Shown here in pieces: positions 1 through 7,067 of a DNA stretch of 7,067 nt (within the stretch, counting starts at the first letter, position 1; the number at the start of each line of letters is the position of its first letter). The notes beneath the pieces are model-generated. The model saw only the letters and a list, made by a program, of their open reading frames with translations. It made no database searches and was not told the DNA's origin. The translations under genes were made by a program, and so were the position numbers. Origin of the DNA: a virus (Duplodnaviria; Heunggongvirae; Uroviricota; Caudoviricetes); IMG/VR virus record IMGVR_UViG_2703718789_000002, one strand, 5' to 3'.

Positions 1-471
1 CTGCTGATGATCAACTGGCTTTCCAAACTCGTATTTATCACAAGGATAATCGGCGTGGCAGATGACATATTTTTTTCCTTTACTCACCAGTTCGATGATT
101 AACGGAAGTTCATCTGCTTTATGGGCAAGAGCTTTAGCCAGAATTTCTTTGTCGTAATCGAGATTAAAGAACCAGCCACCGCCATTAAGCAGCCAGTGAT
201 TGACGTTTCCACGCTCTGATAAGCCATCAATCATCATTTGCTCATGGTTTCCACGTACAGCTCTGAACCAGGGGAATGTGATTAATTCCAGGCATTCTAC
301 GTTCTCTGTACCGCGATCAACCAAATCGCCCACCGAGATAAGCAGGTCTTTTTTGGTGTCGAATCCTATCGTCTCCAGTTTTTTCATCAGGTTCGTGTAG
401 CATCCGTGCAGATCGCCAACTACCCAAATATTTCGGTATTTGCTGCCATCAATTCTTTCGTAGATATTCAT
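1..471 (-). CDS. Serine/threonine protein phosphatase (lambda PPase/orf221-like), partial; C-terminus lies beyond the window's left edge
   Basis: Minus-strand ORF with ATG at 471 (cat 469-471), open to position 1. Translation [25 protein letters not shown]...GNHEQMM carries the GDLHG, GDLVDRG and GNHE motifs of calcineurin-like phosphoesterases and closely resembles lambda Ser/Thr phosphatase as I recall it. Confidence 0.9.
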
Positions 472-1091
472 GCAACCTCACTTCTGCTGTTTCGCAGTTT
501 TTTAAGTTTCTGTTGATACTCCGCCTTGATGGCCCTGCACTCTTCGACAGTCCAGCGATAGCGGTTATGGTTTGATTCGATTTCCTCTACTGCTTCCTGC
601 CCGATGCGGCTAATCAGTTCGACGCGATACGGAACGAGATTTCCGCTTTTGTGCTGGTTGCACACCACGCATTGCTTGTGAATATTGCGTTCATCAAATC
701 GGAGTTGAGGTGCCGCAGCAGTTGTCCGGTAATGTCCGGCATCCCACTGAGCAGACGTGAGCGTTCCGCACGAGATACATGGTAAGTCGCGGTCTCTTTC
801 TCTGATGAAGGCGTTTACGGCTTGTTGGGCTTGTTTAATCCAGTAACTGCGGGGCTTTAAGGCGAGTTTTTGAATCTTAAGTTTATCTTTCTGTTTCTGC
901 TCCTCTCGTCGTCGTTTCTTCTCTGCTGCCTTTTCTGCCTTTTCCGCTTTTTCGCGTTCTTTGCTTCGTCGTTCGAGTGCTATCTTGGTTCCACACTCTG
1001 GAGAGCACCACCACTGATTAGCGAATGCAGGGTGAAACCATTCCCGACATTCATCGTTTTTACATCGTCTTCGCGCTGGTTTAGCCATCAT
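468..1091 (-). CDS. ninG: NinG (Rap-like recombination-associated protein)
   Basis: 207-aa [24 protein letters not shown]... with Cys-rich N-terminus and K/E-rich low-complexity stretch, matching my recollection of lambda NinG. Stop at 468-470 abuts the phosphatase start at 471. Start at 1091 or 1088 (tandem ATG). Confidence 0.85.
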
Positions 1092-1251
1092 CTTCTTCCT
1101 CGTGCATCGAGCTATTCGAATCGCTCATCAGCTCTGCGCAGCAGTGCTCACACACGTGAACTTCCAGCACATGCAGCTTCTGACCGCAGTTAGCGCACGT
1201 TAAAGCTCGCTCGACGCTTTCTTGTTCGTAACTTCGATTTTGGTCAATCAC
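1081..1251 (-). CDS. ninF: NinF-like small Cys-rich protein (start codon uncertain)
   Basis: ORF ending ...[34 protein letters not shown]...EEEDDG, recognised as lambda NinF-like. The ORF track opens at a GTG at 1293, which would overlap ninE by 46 nt. An in-frame GTG at 1249-1251 directly abuts the ninE stop (GTGA overlap) and is my preferred start. No ATG is available. Confidence 0.6.
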
Positions 1252-1430
1252 CTTGTTTTCCTCGCACAATGTCTTAGCCACCGGATATCCCACAGGTGAG
1301 CCGTGTAGTTGAAGGTTTTTACGTCAGATTCTTTTGGGATTGGCTTGCGTTTATTTCTGGAGCGTTTCGTTGGAAGGTATTTGCAGTTTTCGCAGATGAT
1401 GTCGGTGAAACTTCGTCGCTGTCGCCTCAT
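1248..1430 (-). CDS. ninE: NinE
   Basis: Internal ATG at 1430 (cat 1428-1430) gives 60 aa [60 protein letters not shown], matching lambda NinE length and sequence as recalled. The start overlaps the upstream gene's stop (ATGA). Confidence 0.85.
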
Positions 1431-1954
1431 GCCGCCCTCCTGACGCCCTGCCCGATCGCCATCAATGCCGCTTTGGATACGGTAGTAAACATCCGTCGAG
1501 GACTGATGAACGGTCGCCAAATCAGCAGCATGGAGCCTTTGCTGTTTCCCTTCTTCTCCAACCCTGTCGATGGTTCGATAAAATTAATCCGTCCATCAGT
1601 GATAATGCGAACTTCGTCGACACTCTCCAGAGCCTTGCTGAACCATCCGACTGACATATCCTCTGGCACAAGCATAACTACCGTCTGTCGCTGTTGTATG
1701 CACTGCTCAGCGGCTTTTTCCACCCACGGCCTGATATTGCTGTACGGTGGGTTATTCCAGATTGCACCGTGGCTTACCCACTCAAAATTGAGCGCGTCGT
1801 CGGCCTCAGTTAGCCAGTGAGCACACAGAGCATTTTTGTCGCTCGCTGCCGAATCCAGCCAGAATCCAAACTCAATATCCAGTGCATCAAAAAGCCAAAG
1901 CGGCGTTTGCCAGCAGTCCTTGTCGTGTGCTGGCGTATTTGATTTGATAGTCAT
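1427..1954 (-). CDS. Phage DNA N6-adenine methyltransferase (Dam family)
   Basis: 175 aa from ATG at 1954 (cat 1952-1954): [31 protein letters not shown]...[18 protein letters not shown]... The NPPY motif (motif IV of N6-adenine MTases) and the CWQTP N-terminus are typical of the phage Dam MTase family. It sits where lambda has ninC/ninD. The longer ORF-track start at 2014 is rejected because it would overlap ninB by 60 nt. Confidence 0.8.
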
Positions 1955-2391
1955 GCAGCCCGATCTCCCCATCTCGCTTTCCACTCCAGAGCCAGTCTCG
2001 CTTCGTCTGACCACTTAACGCCACGCTCTGTACCGAATGCCTGTATAAGCTCTAATAGCTCCGCAAATTCGCCTACACGCATCCTGCTGGTTGACTGGCC
2101 TATTACCACAAAGCCATTCCCGGCAAGGTTAGGAACAACATCCTGCTGCTTTAATGCTGCGGTAAACACACACTTCCAGCTTTCTGCATCCAGCCAGCGA
2201 CCATGCCATTCAACCTGACGAGAGACGTCACCTAAGCAGGCCCATAGCTTCCTGTTTTGGTCTAAGCTGCGGTTGCGTTCCTGAATGGTTACTACGATTG
2301 GTTTGGTTGGGTCTGGAAGGATTTGCTGTACTGCGTGAATAGCGTTTTGCTGATGTGCTGGAGATCGAATTTCAAAGGTTAGTTTTTTCAT
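1951..2391 (-). CDS. ninB: NinB (Orf-family recombination mediator)
   Basis: 146 aa from ATG at 2391 (cat 2389-2391): MKKLTFEIRSPAHQQNAIHAVQQILPDPTKPIVVTIQERNRSLDQNRKLWACLGDV..., which I recognise as lambda NinB. Stop overlaps the MTase start (ATGA). Confidence 0.9.
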   Translation of the reverse strand: MKKLTFEIRSPAHQQNAIHAVQQILPDPTKPIVVTIQERNRSLDQNRKLWACLGDVSRQVEWHGRWLDAESWKCVFTAALKQQDVVPNLAGNGFVVIGQSTSRMRVGEFAELLELIQAFGTERGVKWSDEARLALEWKARWGDRAA

Positions 2392-2404
2392 GACTTCCCT
2401 CTCC

Positions 2405-2440
2405 CCCAAATAAAAAGGCCTGCGATTACCAGCAGGCCTG
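2405..2440 (-). terminator. Rho-independent terminator, lambda tR2-like
   Basis: Read on the minus strand: AGGCCTGC (2439-2432), loop, GCAGGCCT (2423-2416), then TTTTTATTT (2415-2407). Perfect 8-bp GC-rich stem plus U-tract, between ren and ninB where lambda tR2 lies. Confidence 0.85.
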
Positions 2441-2464
2441 TTATTAGCTCAGTAATGTAGATGG

Positions 2465-2755
2465 TCATCTTTTAACTCCATATACCGCCAATACCCGTTT
2501 CATCGCGGCACTCTGGCGACACTCCTTAAAAACCAGGTTCGTGCTCATCTTTCCTTCCCGTTCTTCCCTGGTAGCAAACCGGTAATACACCGTTCGCCAG
2601 ACCTTACCTTCGATAACCAGAAGACCTGCCCGTGCCATTTTAGCCGCGGCCTGATTTATGCTGGTTACTGTTGCGCCTGTTAGCGCGGCAACGTCCGGCG
2701 CACAGAAGCTATTATGCGTCCTCAGGTAATGAATAATTGCCTCTTTGCCCGTCAT
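2465..2755 (-). CDS. ren: Ren protein
   Basis: 96 aa MTGKEAIIHYLRTHNSFCAPDVAALTGATVTSINQAAAKMARAGLLVIEGKVWRTVYY..., matching lambda Ren as recalled. Start overlaps the P stop. Confidence 0.9.
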   Translation of the reverse strand: MTGKEAIIHYLRTHNSFCAPDVAALTGATVTSINQAAAKMARAGLLVIEGKVWRTVYYRFATREEREGKMSTNLVFKECRQSAAMKRVLAVYGVKR

Positions 2756-3453
2756 ACACTTGCTCCTTTCAGTCCGAACTTAGCTTTGATTTCTGCGATC
2801 TTCGCCAGAGCCTGTGCACGATTTAGAGGTCTACCGCCCATGACAGGAAGTTGTTTTACTGGTTCAGGGATCGCCTCACCACGGTTAATTCTCGCAGTCA
2901 TATGGACAAGCTCATCTGCGGCCTTACGGCGTAATTCCGCATCAGTAAGCGCATTGGCCCGCATGTTCTGATACAGGTTGGTAACCAGCCAGTAGTGCGC
3001 GTTTGATTTCCACGGATAAGACTCCGCATCCGGATACAGGCCTCGCTTCCGGCAATACTCGTAAACCATATCAACCAGCTCGCTGACGTTTGGCAGTCCG
3101 GCGATAACGGATGCTTCTTCCCGGCACCATGCAACAAACTGCCCGGGTGATGGCAGAAATGGTCGATTCTGCCGACGGGCTACGCGCATTCCTGCGTTAA
3201 CCTGTTCCATTGTGGTGATCCCGTTTTCCCGGAAAGCCAGAACCCACTGGCGGCGGATTTCGTTCAGTTCGTTCTGGTCACGGTTAGCCAGACTCGCCGG
3301 GAAAGTTGCCAGTAACTGGCTGAACACACCGTTGATGATCTGCGCTACCTGCTGTACCTGCGGCTTTTCGTCGTACTGTTCCGGCATGTTGTTGGCGATC
3401 CTACACATCTGCTCACGGTCAAAGTTAACCATCTGTGCGGCGATGTTTTTCAT
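2752..3453 (-). CDS. P: Replication protein P (DnaB helicase loader)
   Basis: 233 aa MKNIAAQMVNFDREQMCRIANNMPEQYDEKPQVQQ..., recognised as lambda P. ATGA overlap with the O stop at 3450-3453. Confidence 0.93.
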   Translation of the reverse strand: MKNIAAQMVNFDREQMCRIANNMPEQYDEKPQVQQVAQIINGVFSQLLATFPASLANRDQNELNEIRRQWVLAFRENGITTMEQVNAGMRVARRQNRPFLPSPGQFVAWCREEASVIAGLPNVSELVDMVYEYCRKRGLYPDAESYPWKSNAHYWLVTNLYQNMRANALTDAELRRKAADELVHMTARINRGEAIPEPVKQLPVMGGRPLNRAQALAKIAEIKAKFGLKGASV

Positions 3454-4349
3454 AGATCCACCCCGTAAATCCAGTCTGTGTTTGTCAGGTCGAGTTTTGG
3501 TTTGCTGGCTGTCACGACTGCCTGTTGCTTGTTACGGTTGATTTCGAGCTGGGTCCACTTGTCGCGGAGTTTGGCCGGGCTCAGCACGTTACCGGACCAG
3601 AAGTTGTCCTGGCATGCCCAGCGGAACAGCACGCACATGTCGCGGTGGTTACGTCCGTCACGTTCACGCATCAGGCGGATATCGTTAGCCCACCCAGCAA
3701 AATTCGGTTTTCTGGCTGATGGTGCGATAGTCTTCACCATGTCAAACATCCACTCTGCGGCGGTCAGGTCTTCTGCTGTCCCCCACTTGCTGCCGCTCTG
3801 AATTGCAGCATCCGGTTTCACCACAGAAAGGTCGTTTTCTGGCTGGTCAGAGGATTCGCCAGAATTCTCTGACGAATAATCTTTTCTTTTTTCTTTTGTA
3901 ATAGTGTCTTTTGTGTCCCCCTGTTTTGAGGGATAGCAATCCCCCAATTTGAGGGATGTTTTATCCCTCGTTTTAGGGGATTTTCCCTCGTTTTGAGGGA
4001 TGCACCATTCTGAGATGTTTTTATTTGGTCCAAACATGCCGCCTTGCTGCTTGATAATATTCATTCTGACGAGTTCTAACTTGGCTTCATTGCACCGTTT
4101 GACGGGTAACTTTGTAATCTCGCTAAGTTGAGAATCGGTGATTCTGTCCATTGGTTTATTCCACCCATAGGTTTTACGCAGAATGGCAAGCAGCACTTTA
4201 AACTGTCGCTTGGTCAGATCTGCGCCCGAATAAGCCTCAAGCAGCATATTTGATAGTCTGGCGTAACCATCATCGAGATCTGCCACATTACGCTCCTGTC
4301 CGGCAAAGTTACCTCTGCCGAAGTTGAGTATTTTTGCTGTATTTGTCAT
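3450..4349 (-). CDS. O: Replication initiator protein O
   Basis: 299 aa MTNTAKILNFGRGNFAGQERNVADLDDGYARLSNMLLEAYSG..., recognised as lambda O. The gene contains the iteron array (ori) in its middle, as in lambda. Confidence 0.93.
   Translation of the reverse strand: MTNTAKILNFGRGNFAGQERNVADLDDGYARLSNMLLEAYSGADLTKRQFKVLLAILRKTYGWNKPMDRITDSQLSEITKLPVKRCNEAKLELVRMNIIKQQGGMFGPNKNISEWCIPQNEGKSPKTRDKTSLKLGDCYPSKQGDTKDTITKEKRKDYSSENSGESSDQPENDLSVVKPDAAIQSGSKWGTAEDLTAAEWMFDMVKTIAPSARKPNFAGWANDIRLMRERDGRNHRDMCVLFRWACQDNFWSGNVLSPAKLRDKWTQLEINRNKQQAVVTASKPKLDLTNTDWIYGVDL
3880..4005. repeat. ori-lambda-like replication origin: four ~17-18 bp iterons plus adjacent AT-rich region, embedded in O
   Basis: Iterons on the plus strand: tccccctgttttgaggga (3916-3933), tcccccaatttgaggga (3940-3956), tccctcgttttagggga (3964-3980), tccctcgttttgaggga (3984-4000). 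Each is an inverted repeat TCCC...GGGA. Flanked at 3880-3915 by an AT-rich run (ttttctttttt cttttgtaatagtgtcttttgtg). Confidence 0.9.
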
Positions 4350-4359
4350 AATGACTCCT
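4324..4359 (+). promoter_or_regulatory. pO promoter for oop RNA
   Basis: TTGAGT (4324-4329), 17-nt spacer, CATAAT (4347-4352), with the oop 5' end about 7 nt downstream at 4360. Confidence 0.7.
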
Positions 4360-4436
4360 GTTGATAGATCCAGTAATGACCTCAGAACTCCATCTGGATT
4401 TGTTCAGAACGCTCGGTTGCCGCCGGGCGTTTTTTA
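4360..4436 (+). ncRNA. oop: oop antisense RNA (77 nt), overlapping the 3' end of cII
   Basis: Plus-strand gttgatagatccagtaatgacctcagaactccatctggatttgttcagaacgctcggttgccgccgggcgtttttt matches the lambda oop RNA sequence as I recall it. It ends in a GC-rich hairpin plus T-run (4430-4436) and is antisense to cII codons at 4382-4436. Confidence 0.85.
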
Positions 4437-4675
4437 TTGGTGAGAATCGCAGCAACTTGTCGCGCCAATCGAGCCATGTCGTCGTCAACGCCCCCCCATT
4501 CAAGAACAGCAAGCAGCATTGAGAACTTGGGAATCCAGTCTCTCTTCCACCTGCTGATCTGCGACTTATCAACTCCCACAGCTTCCGCTGTCTTCTCAGT
4601 TCCAAGCATTGCGATTTTGTTAAGCAACGCACTCTCGATTCGTAGTGCCTCGTTGCGTTTGTTTGCACGAACCAT
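4382..4675 (-). CDS. cII: Transcriptional activator cII
   Basis: 97 aa from ATG at 4675 (cat 4673-4675): MVRANKRNEALRIESALLNKIAMLGTEKTAEAVGVDKSQISRWKRDW..., recognised as lambda cII. The longer ORF-track start at 4735 is rejected. Confidence 0.93.
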   Translation of the reverse strand: MVRANKRNEALRIESALLNKIAMLGTEKTAEAVGVDKSQISRWKRDWIPKFSMLLAVLEWGGVDDDMARLARQVAAILTNKKRPAATERSEQIQMEF

Positions 4676-4695
4676 ATGTAAGTATTTCCTTAGAT
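4650..4695 (+). promoter_or_regulatory. pRE (cII-dependent establishment promoter) with TTGC-N6-TTGC cII site
   Basis: Plus strand ttgcgtttgtttgc (4653-4666) is the direct TTGC repeat bound by cII. A -10-like aagtat lies at 4680-4685. The promoter overlaps the cII start and is oriented toward cro/cI (antisense to cro), as in lambda. Confidence 0.75.
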
Positions 4696-4754
4696 AACAA
4701 TTGATTGAATGTATGCAAATAAATGCATACACCATAGGTGTGGTTTAATTGGAT

Positions 4755-4786
4755 GCCCTTTTTCAGGGCTGTGATGTGTAAGAGCG
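4755..4786 (-). promoter_or_regulatory. nutR-like N-utilisation site (boxA + boxB hairpin), in the cro-cII spacer that also holds the tR1 region
   Basis: On the minus strand boxA CGCTCTTAC (complement of 4778-4786) is followed by boxB hairpin GCCCTGAAAAAGGGC (complement of 4755-4769). Order and spacing relative to cro and cII are as in lambda. A palindrome gtatgcaaataaatgcatac (4711-4730) lies between boxB and cII. Confidence 0.8.
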
Positions 4787-4793
4787 GTGTTAT

Positions 4794-5808
<1,015 letters not shown>

Positions 5809-5858
5809 TGATAAGTCGCCGAGATGCTCGTAGAGCATACAGCGATGCAGGAGAATTT

Positions 5859-6293
5859 ATGGCACTTAATTTAGAAAGAATATCTTTTATAACCCCATTT
5901 GATAGCAGCGAAGAACCCAACCAACCGACGCTTAATTTTACATGCAATGAATTTCCTGCGCGGCTATCAATTGATTTCAGGGTTGGTATGATCGGGTTGA
6001 AACCAAATTCAAGATATAATTTGGGTATTATGGTAATCCCCGCGCACCTAATTATAAAAAAAGGTGAGGAAATTCAATTCCCTGACGGCTCTTCGGAATC
6101 AGTTTCACTTTTCATCGATACGAAAGATAGCCATTTTGAAACAGGGGTTGGCGGACAGGTAATAGTAACATTGAAAGAAATTAGGATCCCAGCTAAAGGG
6201 CTGTATAGTGTTATAGGGAGATTGCAAGATAATGAAGACCCTAAAAATGAACTTCATAAAAATGAATCATTTTTCACCGTAGAGCTATTATGA
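5859..6293 (+). CDS. Hypothetical protein (soluble, ~144 aa), first gene of the cassette that occupies the rexA position
   Basis: ORF in frame with ORF-track 5805..6293. Preferred start is ATG 5859-5861, preceded by AGGAG (5849-5853) at 5-nt spacing. GTG 5805 and ATG 5808 are alternatives without a good SD. Translation MALNLERISFITPFDSSEEPNQPTLNFTCNEF...ESFFTVELL has no hydrophobic segment and no motif I recognise. It is not similar to lambda RexA. Confidence 0.7.
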   Translation: MALNLERISFITPFDSSEEPNQPTLNFTCNEFPARLSIDFRVGMIGLKPNSRYNLGIMVIPAHLIIKKGEEIQFPDGSSESVSLFIDTKDSHFETGVGGQVIVTLKEIRIPAKGLYSVIGRLQDNEDPKNELHKNESFFTVELL

Positions 6294-6892
6294 GTGACGA
6301 CAGCAATTTAAATAATCATGGAAAGCAAGACACCAACATATCTGAAAGCCGGAGGTTGAAGGTTGTTGGCGGTTCCGATTTTGAGGCTGAATTTGATAAT
6401 TCTCCCACCAAGGTGCAAAATAATTACATAAAACCGCCACAAACGGAGGAAGAAGTGGGAACGATCAGCAGAGAGGAACTTGATGCTCGCTTAGCTGCTA
6501 ATAAAGCAGAGATGGAGTCTATTGCTTCTTCCATTAGGGCTGACATGGCTCTATCTCGTGAAAGCGTTAATGTCCAATTTGCATCACTTAATGCGGCCAT
6601 AAGCTCTCTATCGTCCAAGATCGATGGAAAAATGGATAGCGCTGCTGGCGATTTAAAAGCAATTAATGGGAGATTCGAAGGAATTCAAGGACAAATAACA
6701 GGGGTTAATACCGCAATTAGTGGTGTTCAGTCGGGTATTTCTATACGATTAGCCATTTTTAGTGTCATTATCGCTGTAATAGTTGCGATTCCCGGGCTGG
6801 TATCAGCTTTAAAGTCAGACCACGCACCTTTGCAAGCGCCGCCACAAAATACCCAGCCAACAGACAACAAAAAAATCACTCCCCAGCATTAA
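6290..6892 (+). CDS. Hypothetical membrane-anchored coiled-coil protein (200 aa, single C-terminal TM helix), second gene of the cassette in the rexB position
   Basis: ATG 6290 overlaps the upstream stop (ATGA at 6290-6293). Polar N-terminus, then Ala/Ser/Ile-rich heptad-like helical region (aa ~60-150: REELDARLAANKAEMESIASSIRADMALSRESVNVQFASLNAAISSLSSKIDGK...), then hydrophobic helix LAIFSVIIAVIVAIPGLVSAL (aa 154-174, nt ~6749-6811), then a short Pro/Gln-rich tail. Not similar to lambda RexB, which is polytopic. Confidence 0.8.
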   Translation: MSDDSNLNNHGKQDTNISESRRLKVVGGSDFEAEFDNSPTKVQNNYIKPPQTEEEVGTISREELDARLAANKAEMESIASSIRADMALSRESVNVQFASLNAAISSLSSKIDGKMDSAAGDLKAINGRFEGIQGQITGVNTAISGVQSGISIRLAIFSVIIAVIVAIPGLVSALKSDHAPLQAPPQNTQPTDNKKITPQH

Positions 6893-6918
6893 CCCGGCCT
6901 CAGCGCCGGTTTTTCTTT
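6893..6918 (+). terminator. Putative Rho-independent terminator downstream of the cassette
   Basis: CCGGC (6894-6898), 6-nt loop, GCCGG (6905-6909), then TTTTTCTTT (6910-6918), immediately after the ORF B stop (taa 6890-6892). The stem is short (5 bp, all GC), so confidence is moderate. Confidence 0.55.
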
Positions 6919-7067
6919 GCCTCACGATCGCCCCACCTAAAAACACATAACCAATTGTATTTATTGGAAAATAAATAGATACAACTCACTAAACAACGCA
7001 ATTCTGATCTCTCCTTACATCGCCGAGGCAATACACTCACTCGTAAGCGTACAGCCTGAACCGTCTG

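Follow-up and report, generated by a model that had tools for sequence, protein, structure and literature searches.

Introduction

The described systems closest to the gene considered here are Dam-like adenine methyltransferases encoded by phages. A passage in one study refers to "the orphan MTase M.EcoVT2Dam of E. coli prophage VT2-Sa" (MTase, methyltransferase), gives its target as 5′-GATC-3′, and credits this assignment to Radlinska & Bujnicki 2001 (PMC6602927). The relevant lines of a second source name VT-2 and HP1 among the phages with Dam-like or GATC activity (PMC7556043), and those of a third list VT-2 with Dam-like or GATC activity and cite the paper on the T1 methyltransferase (PMC7139368). 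In phage Phi24B, a 528-bp gene named "dam" encodes a protein that is 100% identical to NP_050531 and 99% identical to the corresponding HK97 protein, and its product has been detected in lysogen cultures, with expression changing significantly upon induction (PMC3342100).

Here we analyze a gene of this kind that resides in a 7,067-nt stretch of DNA from a virus of the Caudoviricetes (IMG/VR record IMGVR_UViG_2703718789_000002), the whole of which is hereafter called the window. The gene occupies positions 1427-1954 on the minus strand, between ninB and ninE. We conclude that it very probably encodes an orphan, S-adenosylmethionine (AdoMet)-dependent enzyme of the T1/HP1/VT-2 Dam family, which most likely methylates adenine within GATC, is carried as a module of the nin region, would be expressed from pR in an N-dependent manner, and would serve to top up GATC methylation of the phage genome.

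Results

Family Membership and Closest Relatives

The coding sequence and the two segments within it that bear on catalysis are located as follows.

1427-1954, minus strand: coding sequence of an orphan phage N6-adenine DNA methyltransferase, orthologue of M.EcoVT2Dam, assigned from its open reading frame (ORF), from matches to PF05869, TIGR01712 and phrog_111, and from 174 of 175 amino acids shared with NP_050531
1742-1753, minus strand: codons AAC CCA CCG TAC of the catalytic motif IV, NPPY (residues 68-71), read directly; invariant in 30 homologues and conserved in HP1 Dam
1841-1858, minus strand: codons of LDSAAS (residues 33-38) at the end of strand 1, a putative equivalent of AdoMet motif I; L33, D34 and A36 are invariant, and the modeled strand spans residues 31-34

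The ORF comprises 176 codons including the stop (ATG at 1954-1952, TGA at 1429-1427) and thus specifies a protein of 175 aa. A longer, 195-aa version of the ORF, listed mechanically with a GTG start at 2014, was dropped because homologues are ~175 aa in length and align from the ATG (MTI/MTL...), a choice that is also favored by the ATGA junction described below.

Searches with family profiles returned matches over essentially the full length of the protein. These include Pfam PF05869, "DNA N-6-adenine-methyltransferase (Dam)" (E = 3.4e-64, 216 bits versus a cut-off of 28.1, profile positions 1-167 of 169), the NCBIfam equivalog TIGR01712, "phage N-6-adenine-methyltransferase" (E = 4.6e-79, 263.7 bits versus a cut-off of 97.05, positions 1-165 of 165), and PHROG 111 (phrog_111), "DNA methyltransferase" (E = 3.8e-87). 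The top PADLOC matches are to "orphan methyltransferase" (oMTase) models, accompanied by weak matches to Type II methyltransferase models. With Pfam and NCBIfam scores lying far above the curated cut-offs and far beyond what chance would produce, the protein is, judged by its sequence, a phage N6-adenine methyltransferase. Across 30 aligned Enterobacterales homologues (59-98% identity), the invariant residues are those of the NPPY motif (N68-P69-P70-Y71), T17-P18 in a WQTP block, L33-D34 where the first β strand ends, and A36, with both NPPY and LD also conserved in HP1 Dam. The initial annotation had described the product as a Dam-family N6-adenine methyltransferase, and this description is borne out by the full-length hidden Markov model matches to PF05869 and TIGR01712, both above their cut-offs, and by an alignment in which no loss of catalytic residues is seen. 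The description can also be made more precise: the family is that of the phage T1/HP1/VT-2 Dam enzymes rather than that of the host Dam, with which there is no kinship beyond the shared Rossmann fold.

The protein is identical to the product of VT2-Sakai orf32 (NP_050531) at all but one position (99.4% identity), carrying F57 in place of S57 in an alignment column that varies among homologues (S, A, H, V, T and others). Between the two genes, 6 codon differences are synonymous and 1 is non-synonymous, a ratio that suggests purifying selection. In VT2-Sakai, orf32 likewise has ninB and ninE as its neighbors and overlaps each by 4 nt. Because orf32 is the only methyltransferase annotated in VT2-Sakai, we equate it by elimination with M.EcoVT2Dam. 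The candidacy of some other VT2-Sakai gene was dropped, as no second methyltransferase is annotated in that phage besides orf32 and no methyltransferase domain was found in its 2806-aa polyvalent protein. Among more distant relatives, the window protein shares 38% identity (E = 4e-32) with the 173-aa HP1 Dam (orf13), and genes of T1-like Drexlerviridae encode proteins that are ~32-35% identical to it, one of these genes (swan01) being annotated dam.

A Module of the nin Region

The features surrounding the methyltransferase gene are the following.

1951-1954, minus strand: ATGA overlap of the ninB stop and the methyltransferase start, read from the sequence and suggestive of translational coupling
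1427-1430, minus strand: ATGA overlap of the methyltransferase stop and the ninE start, read from the sequence
1951-2409, minus strand: ninB (orf), lambda-like, the upstream neighbor; PF05772, within the stretch of 98.5% nucleotide identity to lambda
1248-1430, minus strand: ninE, the downstream neighbor; PF05322, with lambda homology resuming at 1423
2416-2439, minus strand: intrinsic terminator hairpin and T-run between ren and ninB, a terminator-like site and presumed counterpart of lambda tR2, named by analogy with lambda and from the 98.5% identity

The window contains the early-right region of a lambda-like phage, in which cro, cII, O, P, ren, tR2, ninB, the methyltransferase gene, ninE, ninF and ninG (468-1091) succeed one another on the minus strand, with cI located on the plus strand (5095-5808). 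The flanking genes are identified by profile matches, both for NinB upstream (PF05772, E = 2.3e-54) and for NinE downstream (PF05322, E = 7.5e-42). On the plus strand, each junction appears as TCAT: at 1951-1954 the TGA of ninB overlaps the ATG of the methyltransferase gene, and at 1427-1430 the TGA of the latter overlaps the ATG of ninE. A GGAG Shine-Dalgarno-like element resides 10 nt upstream of the methyltransferase ATG. With NinB and NinE flanking the gene through 4-nt overlaps, no restriction endonuclease gene is adjacent, and the methyltransferase is thus an orphan. ATGA junctions and tight packing are general features of lambdoid nin regions (PMC8022706).

Shortly before the methyltransferase start codon, a GATC site (1962-1965) directly follows the Shine-Dalgarno-like element (GGAGATCGGG). 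As the frequency of GATC in the window is that expected by chance, this juxtaposition is probably coincidental.

Comparison with lambda by blastn revealed two aligned blocks, 1951-5809 at 98.5% identity and 468-1423 at 96.4%, separated by a 527-bp segment (1424-1950) that is without a lambda counterpart and that takes the place of 1012 bp. In NC_001416, the replaced 1012 bp encode NinC (290 aa, PAPS-reductase-like) and NinD (57 aa). The lambda ninC-ninD segment therefore occupies the same ninB-ninE slot and is delimited by breakpoints at gene boundaries, here coinciding with the ninB stop and the ninE start, but its genes are unrelated to the methyltransferase. To judge from these alignments, the exchange is a clean module swap of the type that is typical of lambdoid mosaicism. 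The initial annotation had placed a 175-aa protein with an NPPY motif between ninB and ninE, in place of ninC/ninD and with tight ATGA coupling on both sides; the ORF and its translation, the Pfam matches of the neighbors, the two TCAT junctions and the lambda alignment agree with each of these statements. In the ninG-ninE block, the comparison with lambda also shows 2 gaps and 9 extra bases, and NinG is 207 aa here versus 204 aa in lambda.

Other phages align with the window in different combinations. Phage 434 matches positions 1-4787 as a single piece at 97.5% identity, with the methyltransferase gene included, and mEp332 covers 1257-7046 at 99.1%, while lambda covers 76% of the window, without the methyltransferase gene and the replacement of rex. 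No single phage record covering at least 80% of the window was found. These matches show the window to be mosaic, combining the immunity and replication genes of lambda with non-lambda modules in the nin region and the rex slot. The methyltransferase gene is one of the standard modules that lambdoid phages interchange in their nin regions.

With regard to expression, the hairpin and T-run at 2439-2416, which we take to be lambda tR2, belong to a stretch that is 98.5% identical to lambda. No sigma-70-like promoter was found between positions 1000 and 2800, and the possibility that the methyltransferase gene has a promoter of its own was consequently dropped. Because tR2 is situated upstream and no promoter-like site is nearby, the gene is likely to be expressed in the delayed-early phase from pR, following antitermination by N, in line with the delayed-early expression proposed in the initial annotation.

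Distribution of the Gene

Counting full-length copies of the 528-bp gene with at least 95% nucleotide identity, we found it in 244 phage records, which include HK544, Sf6, Sf101, 434, 933W, many environmental lambda isolates, and scores of Shiga toxin (Stx) phages of the Stx1 and Stx2 types. Where these records are annotated, the gene is called "DNA methyltransferase" or "N-6-adenine-methyltransferase". Among the matches listed, NinB and NinE are its neighbors in nearly all annotated phage records, NinB in every one. By the same count, 1566 of 5426 complete E. coli genomes (29%) carry the gene, in up to 5 copies per genome, and RefSeq labels it there as "phage N-6-adenine-methyltransferase", located between "recombination protein NinB" and "NinE family protein". 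The wider family extends to 2124 phage records by tblastn.

Several protein-database clusters (P0002, with 41 member sequences, P0024, P0015 and P0112) contain proteins in which the methyltransferase is apparently fused to NinE (233-235 aa) or to NinB (PF05772). Instead of true fusion proteins, a single-base frameshift at an ATGA junction, or a call that reads through it, most likely accounts for such entries.

Predicted Fold and Target Recognition

A search of the PDB by sequence yielded no significant match (best E = 0.52), and no solved structure was found for PF05869. An AlphaFold2 model was examined, built on the 30-sequence alignment (mean predicted local distance difference test score 80.6, predicted template-modeling score 0.81). 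The model depicts a single α/β domain with a strand at residues 31-34, and no part of it is of low confidence except residues 1-5 and 39-46. The best Foldseek match is PCIF1/CAPAM, a cap-specific adenosine N6-methyltransferase that forms m6Am in the RNA cap (E = 6.6e-5, query template-modeling score 0.53-0.58), and matches to METTL3/14 and METTL4 are weak (E at least 0.05). All of these are generic N6-adenine methyltransferase folds, and the structural matches cover just the catalytic domains of methyltransferases that are 380-1500 aa in length. On the basis of such coverage, the enzyme, as modeled, is a bare Rossmann-fold catalytic core without a separate target-recognition domain. The elements that might then read GATC are the long loop at residues 39-62, the hairpin at residues 121-140, or surfaces created by dimerization.

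Two Coupled ORFs in the rex Slot

In the region downstream of cI, where lambda has rexA/rexB, the window contains two coupled ORFs on the plus strand (5805-6892). One (5805-6293) encodes 162 aa from a GTG start that overlaps the cI stop, and the other (6290-6892), joined to it by an ATGA junction, encodes 200 aa with a C-terminal hydrophobic stretch resembling a membrane anchor. Lambda homology ends at 5809 and returns at 6890, and mEp332 matches the region at 99.1%, with features there that include a "T2SS GspM containing protein" and a "hypothetical protein". Neither ORF gave a Pfam match above cut-off or a PADLOC match. Because this slot is the lysogen-expressed position of the RexAB exclusion system, the two ORFs may constitute an uncharacterized prophage exclusion or defense pair.

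Discussion

Proposed Mechanism and Role

From the established mechanism of N6-adenine methyltransferases, the chemistry carried out by this enzyme can be outlined. The conserved WQTP...LD segment near the N terminus would probably bind AdoMet where the first strands have their carboxyl ends, a role for LD that is suggested by analogy with the topology of class I methyltransferases. The target adenine would then be flipped into the NPPY pocket and methylated at N6. During lytic growth or induction, the methyltransferase would be made from the pR transcript that extends past tR2. Host Dam would be too slow to keep pace with phage replication, and the phage enzyme would top up its activity, such that packaged DNA becomes fully methylated at GATC. 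Full methylation might in turn shield the DNA from MboI/DpnII-type endonucleases that cut GATC in a methylation-sensitive manner, avoid nicking by MutH, and preserve Dam/SeqA-dependent control of promoters and replication in the next host; possession of the enzyme could also render the phage independent of the dam status of its host, as in dam-poor hosts. Such a top-up role appears to be the most plausible one, and the virion DNA of lambda and P22 is known to be under-methylated by host Dam (PMC8022706).

Several points weigh against this proposal. The window holds 25 GATC sites versus 26.7 ± 4.7 expected, neither an excess nor a deficit, and because this count is what chance would yield, the sequence bears no mark of selection linked to the enzyme. 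That the phage benefits is our inference, lambda thrives without the gene, and in the literature searched we found neither a direct test of benefit nor a demonstrated biological role in lambdoid phages. Moreover, orf32 has been equated with M.EcoVT2Dam by elimination, and the GATC specificity of the VT-2 enzyme is known by way of passages in papers that cite the original work (PMC6602927, PMC7556043, PMC7139368). Finally, assays that rely on over-expression can overstate or distort the targets of methyltransferases, a caution raised in PMC10810198.

Alternative Explanations

The physiological substrate might not be, or not only be, duplex GATC, and could instead involve relaxed adenine specificity, single-stranded DNA (ssDNA) or RNA, possibly with the help of a partner protein. 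We regard this as unlikely. The idea is prompted by the combination of two observations: M.EcoPA8orf6770P, annotated as a GATC DNA methyltransferase, turns out to methylate mainly 16S rRNA when in complex with its partner (PMC10810198), and the closest structural match of our model is PCIF1, an RNA cap m6Am methyltransferase. It is further favored by the lack of a recognizable target-recognition domain and by translational coupling to NinB, an ssDNA-binding protein (PMC4118853). However, M.EcoPA8orf6770P is a different gene, encoding a DPPW protein of the MT-A70 family at gp5, and GATC or Dam-like activity is reported, in the passages cited above, for three members of the family to which the window protein belongs (VT-2, HP1 and T1). 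Because there is no recognition domain and the nearest solved fold is that of PCIF1, the enzyme could conceivably be something other than a simple mimic of Dam in vivo, reading GATC only through a dimer or its two poorly modeled loops (residues 39-62 and 121-140) or acting upon a second substrate, such as NinB-bound ssDNA recombination intermediates or RNA, although we consider this improbable.

It is more doubtful still that mosaicism of the nin region has brought in an inactive or dispensable passenger gene, one that provides this phage with no methyltransferase function. The genes of the nin region are non-essential in lambda (PMC8022706), from which this gene is absent, and F57 distinguishes the protein from the characterized one of VT2-Sakai. 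Yet the ORF is intact, all invariant residues of the family are retained, NPPY among them, and the column of residue 57 is one that varies among homologues. Relative to VT2-Sakai, synonymous differences outnumber non-synonymous ones 6:1, which suggests purifying selection; conservation of the gene at an identity of at least 95% extends to 244 phage records and 1566 E. coli genomes; and the Phi24B product, 100% identical to NP_050531, is detectably expressed (PMC3342100). We give almost no credence to the notion that the gene represents the modification half of a restriction-modification system or part of another prophage defense system. Complete restriction-modification systems do occur in some Stx phages, as exemplified by EcoGIII (PMC6602927), and there are the weak PADLOC matches to Type II methyltransferase models, but the 4-nt overlaps with ninB and ninE leave no space for a nuclease gene, the best PADLOC matches are to "orphan methyltransferase" models, and the same NinB/NinE context recurs in the phage and E. 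coli records listed. We therefore favor an orphan enzyme that tops up GATC methylation.

For annotation, these findings confirm a routine call, in that a phage with lambda immunity carries a common methyltransferase module in exchange for ninC/ninD, in keeping with textbook lambdoid mosaicism. In ~29% of complete E. coli genomes, such a gene adds a further GATC methyltransferase to the host Dam, a puzzle that is generic to the family.

Comparison with Known Methyltransferases

Some methyltransferases resemble the window protein by name or setting and must be distinguished from it. E. coli Dam and T4 Dam are α-class enzymes (PF02086, ~260-280 aa), whereas the window protein is ~100 residues shorter, is without the inserted target-recognition domain, and shows no match to PF02086 (MethyltransfD12), with PF05869 being its sole Pfam match at E ≤ 0.01. 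Of the Dam-like enzymes that phages encode, DamT2 and DamT4 alone are homologous to cellular Dam (PMC7139368), and thus the GATC specificity of the present family would be convergent with that of cellular Dam.

M.EcoGV and M.EcoPA8orf6770P are, like the enzyme studied here, small "Dam-like" orphan methyltransferases of Stx-type lambdoid prophages, and an M.EcoGV-type enzyme can share one prophage with M.EcoVT2Dam (PMC6602927). They differ in being DPPW proteins of the MT-A70 family encoded at another locus (gp5), and in that the enzyme needs a partner, PNB-2, and prefers 16S rRNA (PMC10810198). The window protein has NPPY rather than DPPW and shows no match to PF05063 (MT-A70), and the prophage "16S rRNA methyltransferase" of the Koudelka lab (PMC10810198), being the M.EcoGV-like gp5 gene at a different locus, was accordingly ruled out as a description of this gene. 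The case nonetheless serves as a caution that "GATC Dam-like" labels can be incomplete. M.EcoGII and Hia5 are likewise prophage-borne orphan m6A methyltransferases. These enzymes are non-specific, belong to the β class, and are 349 aa in length, with an N-terminal DPPY, a central target-recognition domain and a C-terminal FxGxG (PMC5778455, PMC3299994). Kinship with them was ruled out, given that the window protein comprises 175 aa with a conserved LD segment upstream of NPPY and no C-terminal FxGxG.

The true relatives lie within the T1/HP1/VT-2 Dam family. HP1 Dam belongs to the same PF05869/TIGR01712 family, is of the same size, and conserves the DKD-W-TP, LD and NPPYS blocks. HP1 and T1 are, respectively, a P2-like temperate phage and a T1-like virulent phage, in which the gene has other neighbors, and the T1-like proteins carry an N-terminal extension (726-bp gene). 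The nearest counterpart is M.EcoVT2Dam, the orf32 product of VT2-Sakai and the "dam" product of Phi24B, 933W, HK97 and 434, which has the same length, the same ninB-methyltransferase-ninE context and the same ATGA-type overlaps. In VT2-Sakai these are set in the backbone of an Stx phage, whereas here they accompany lambda-type immunity and the lambda O/P replication genes. The enzyme encoded in the window is thus one that is already known and routinely annotated, and is effectively the same as M.EcoVT2Dam.
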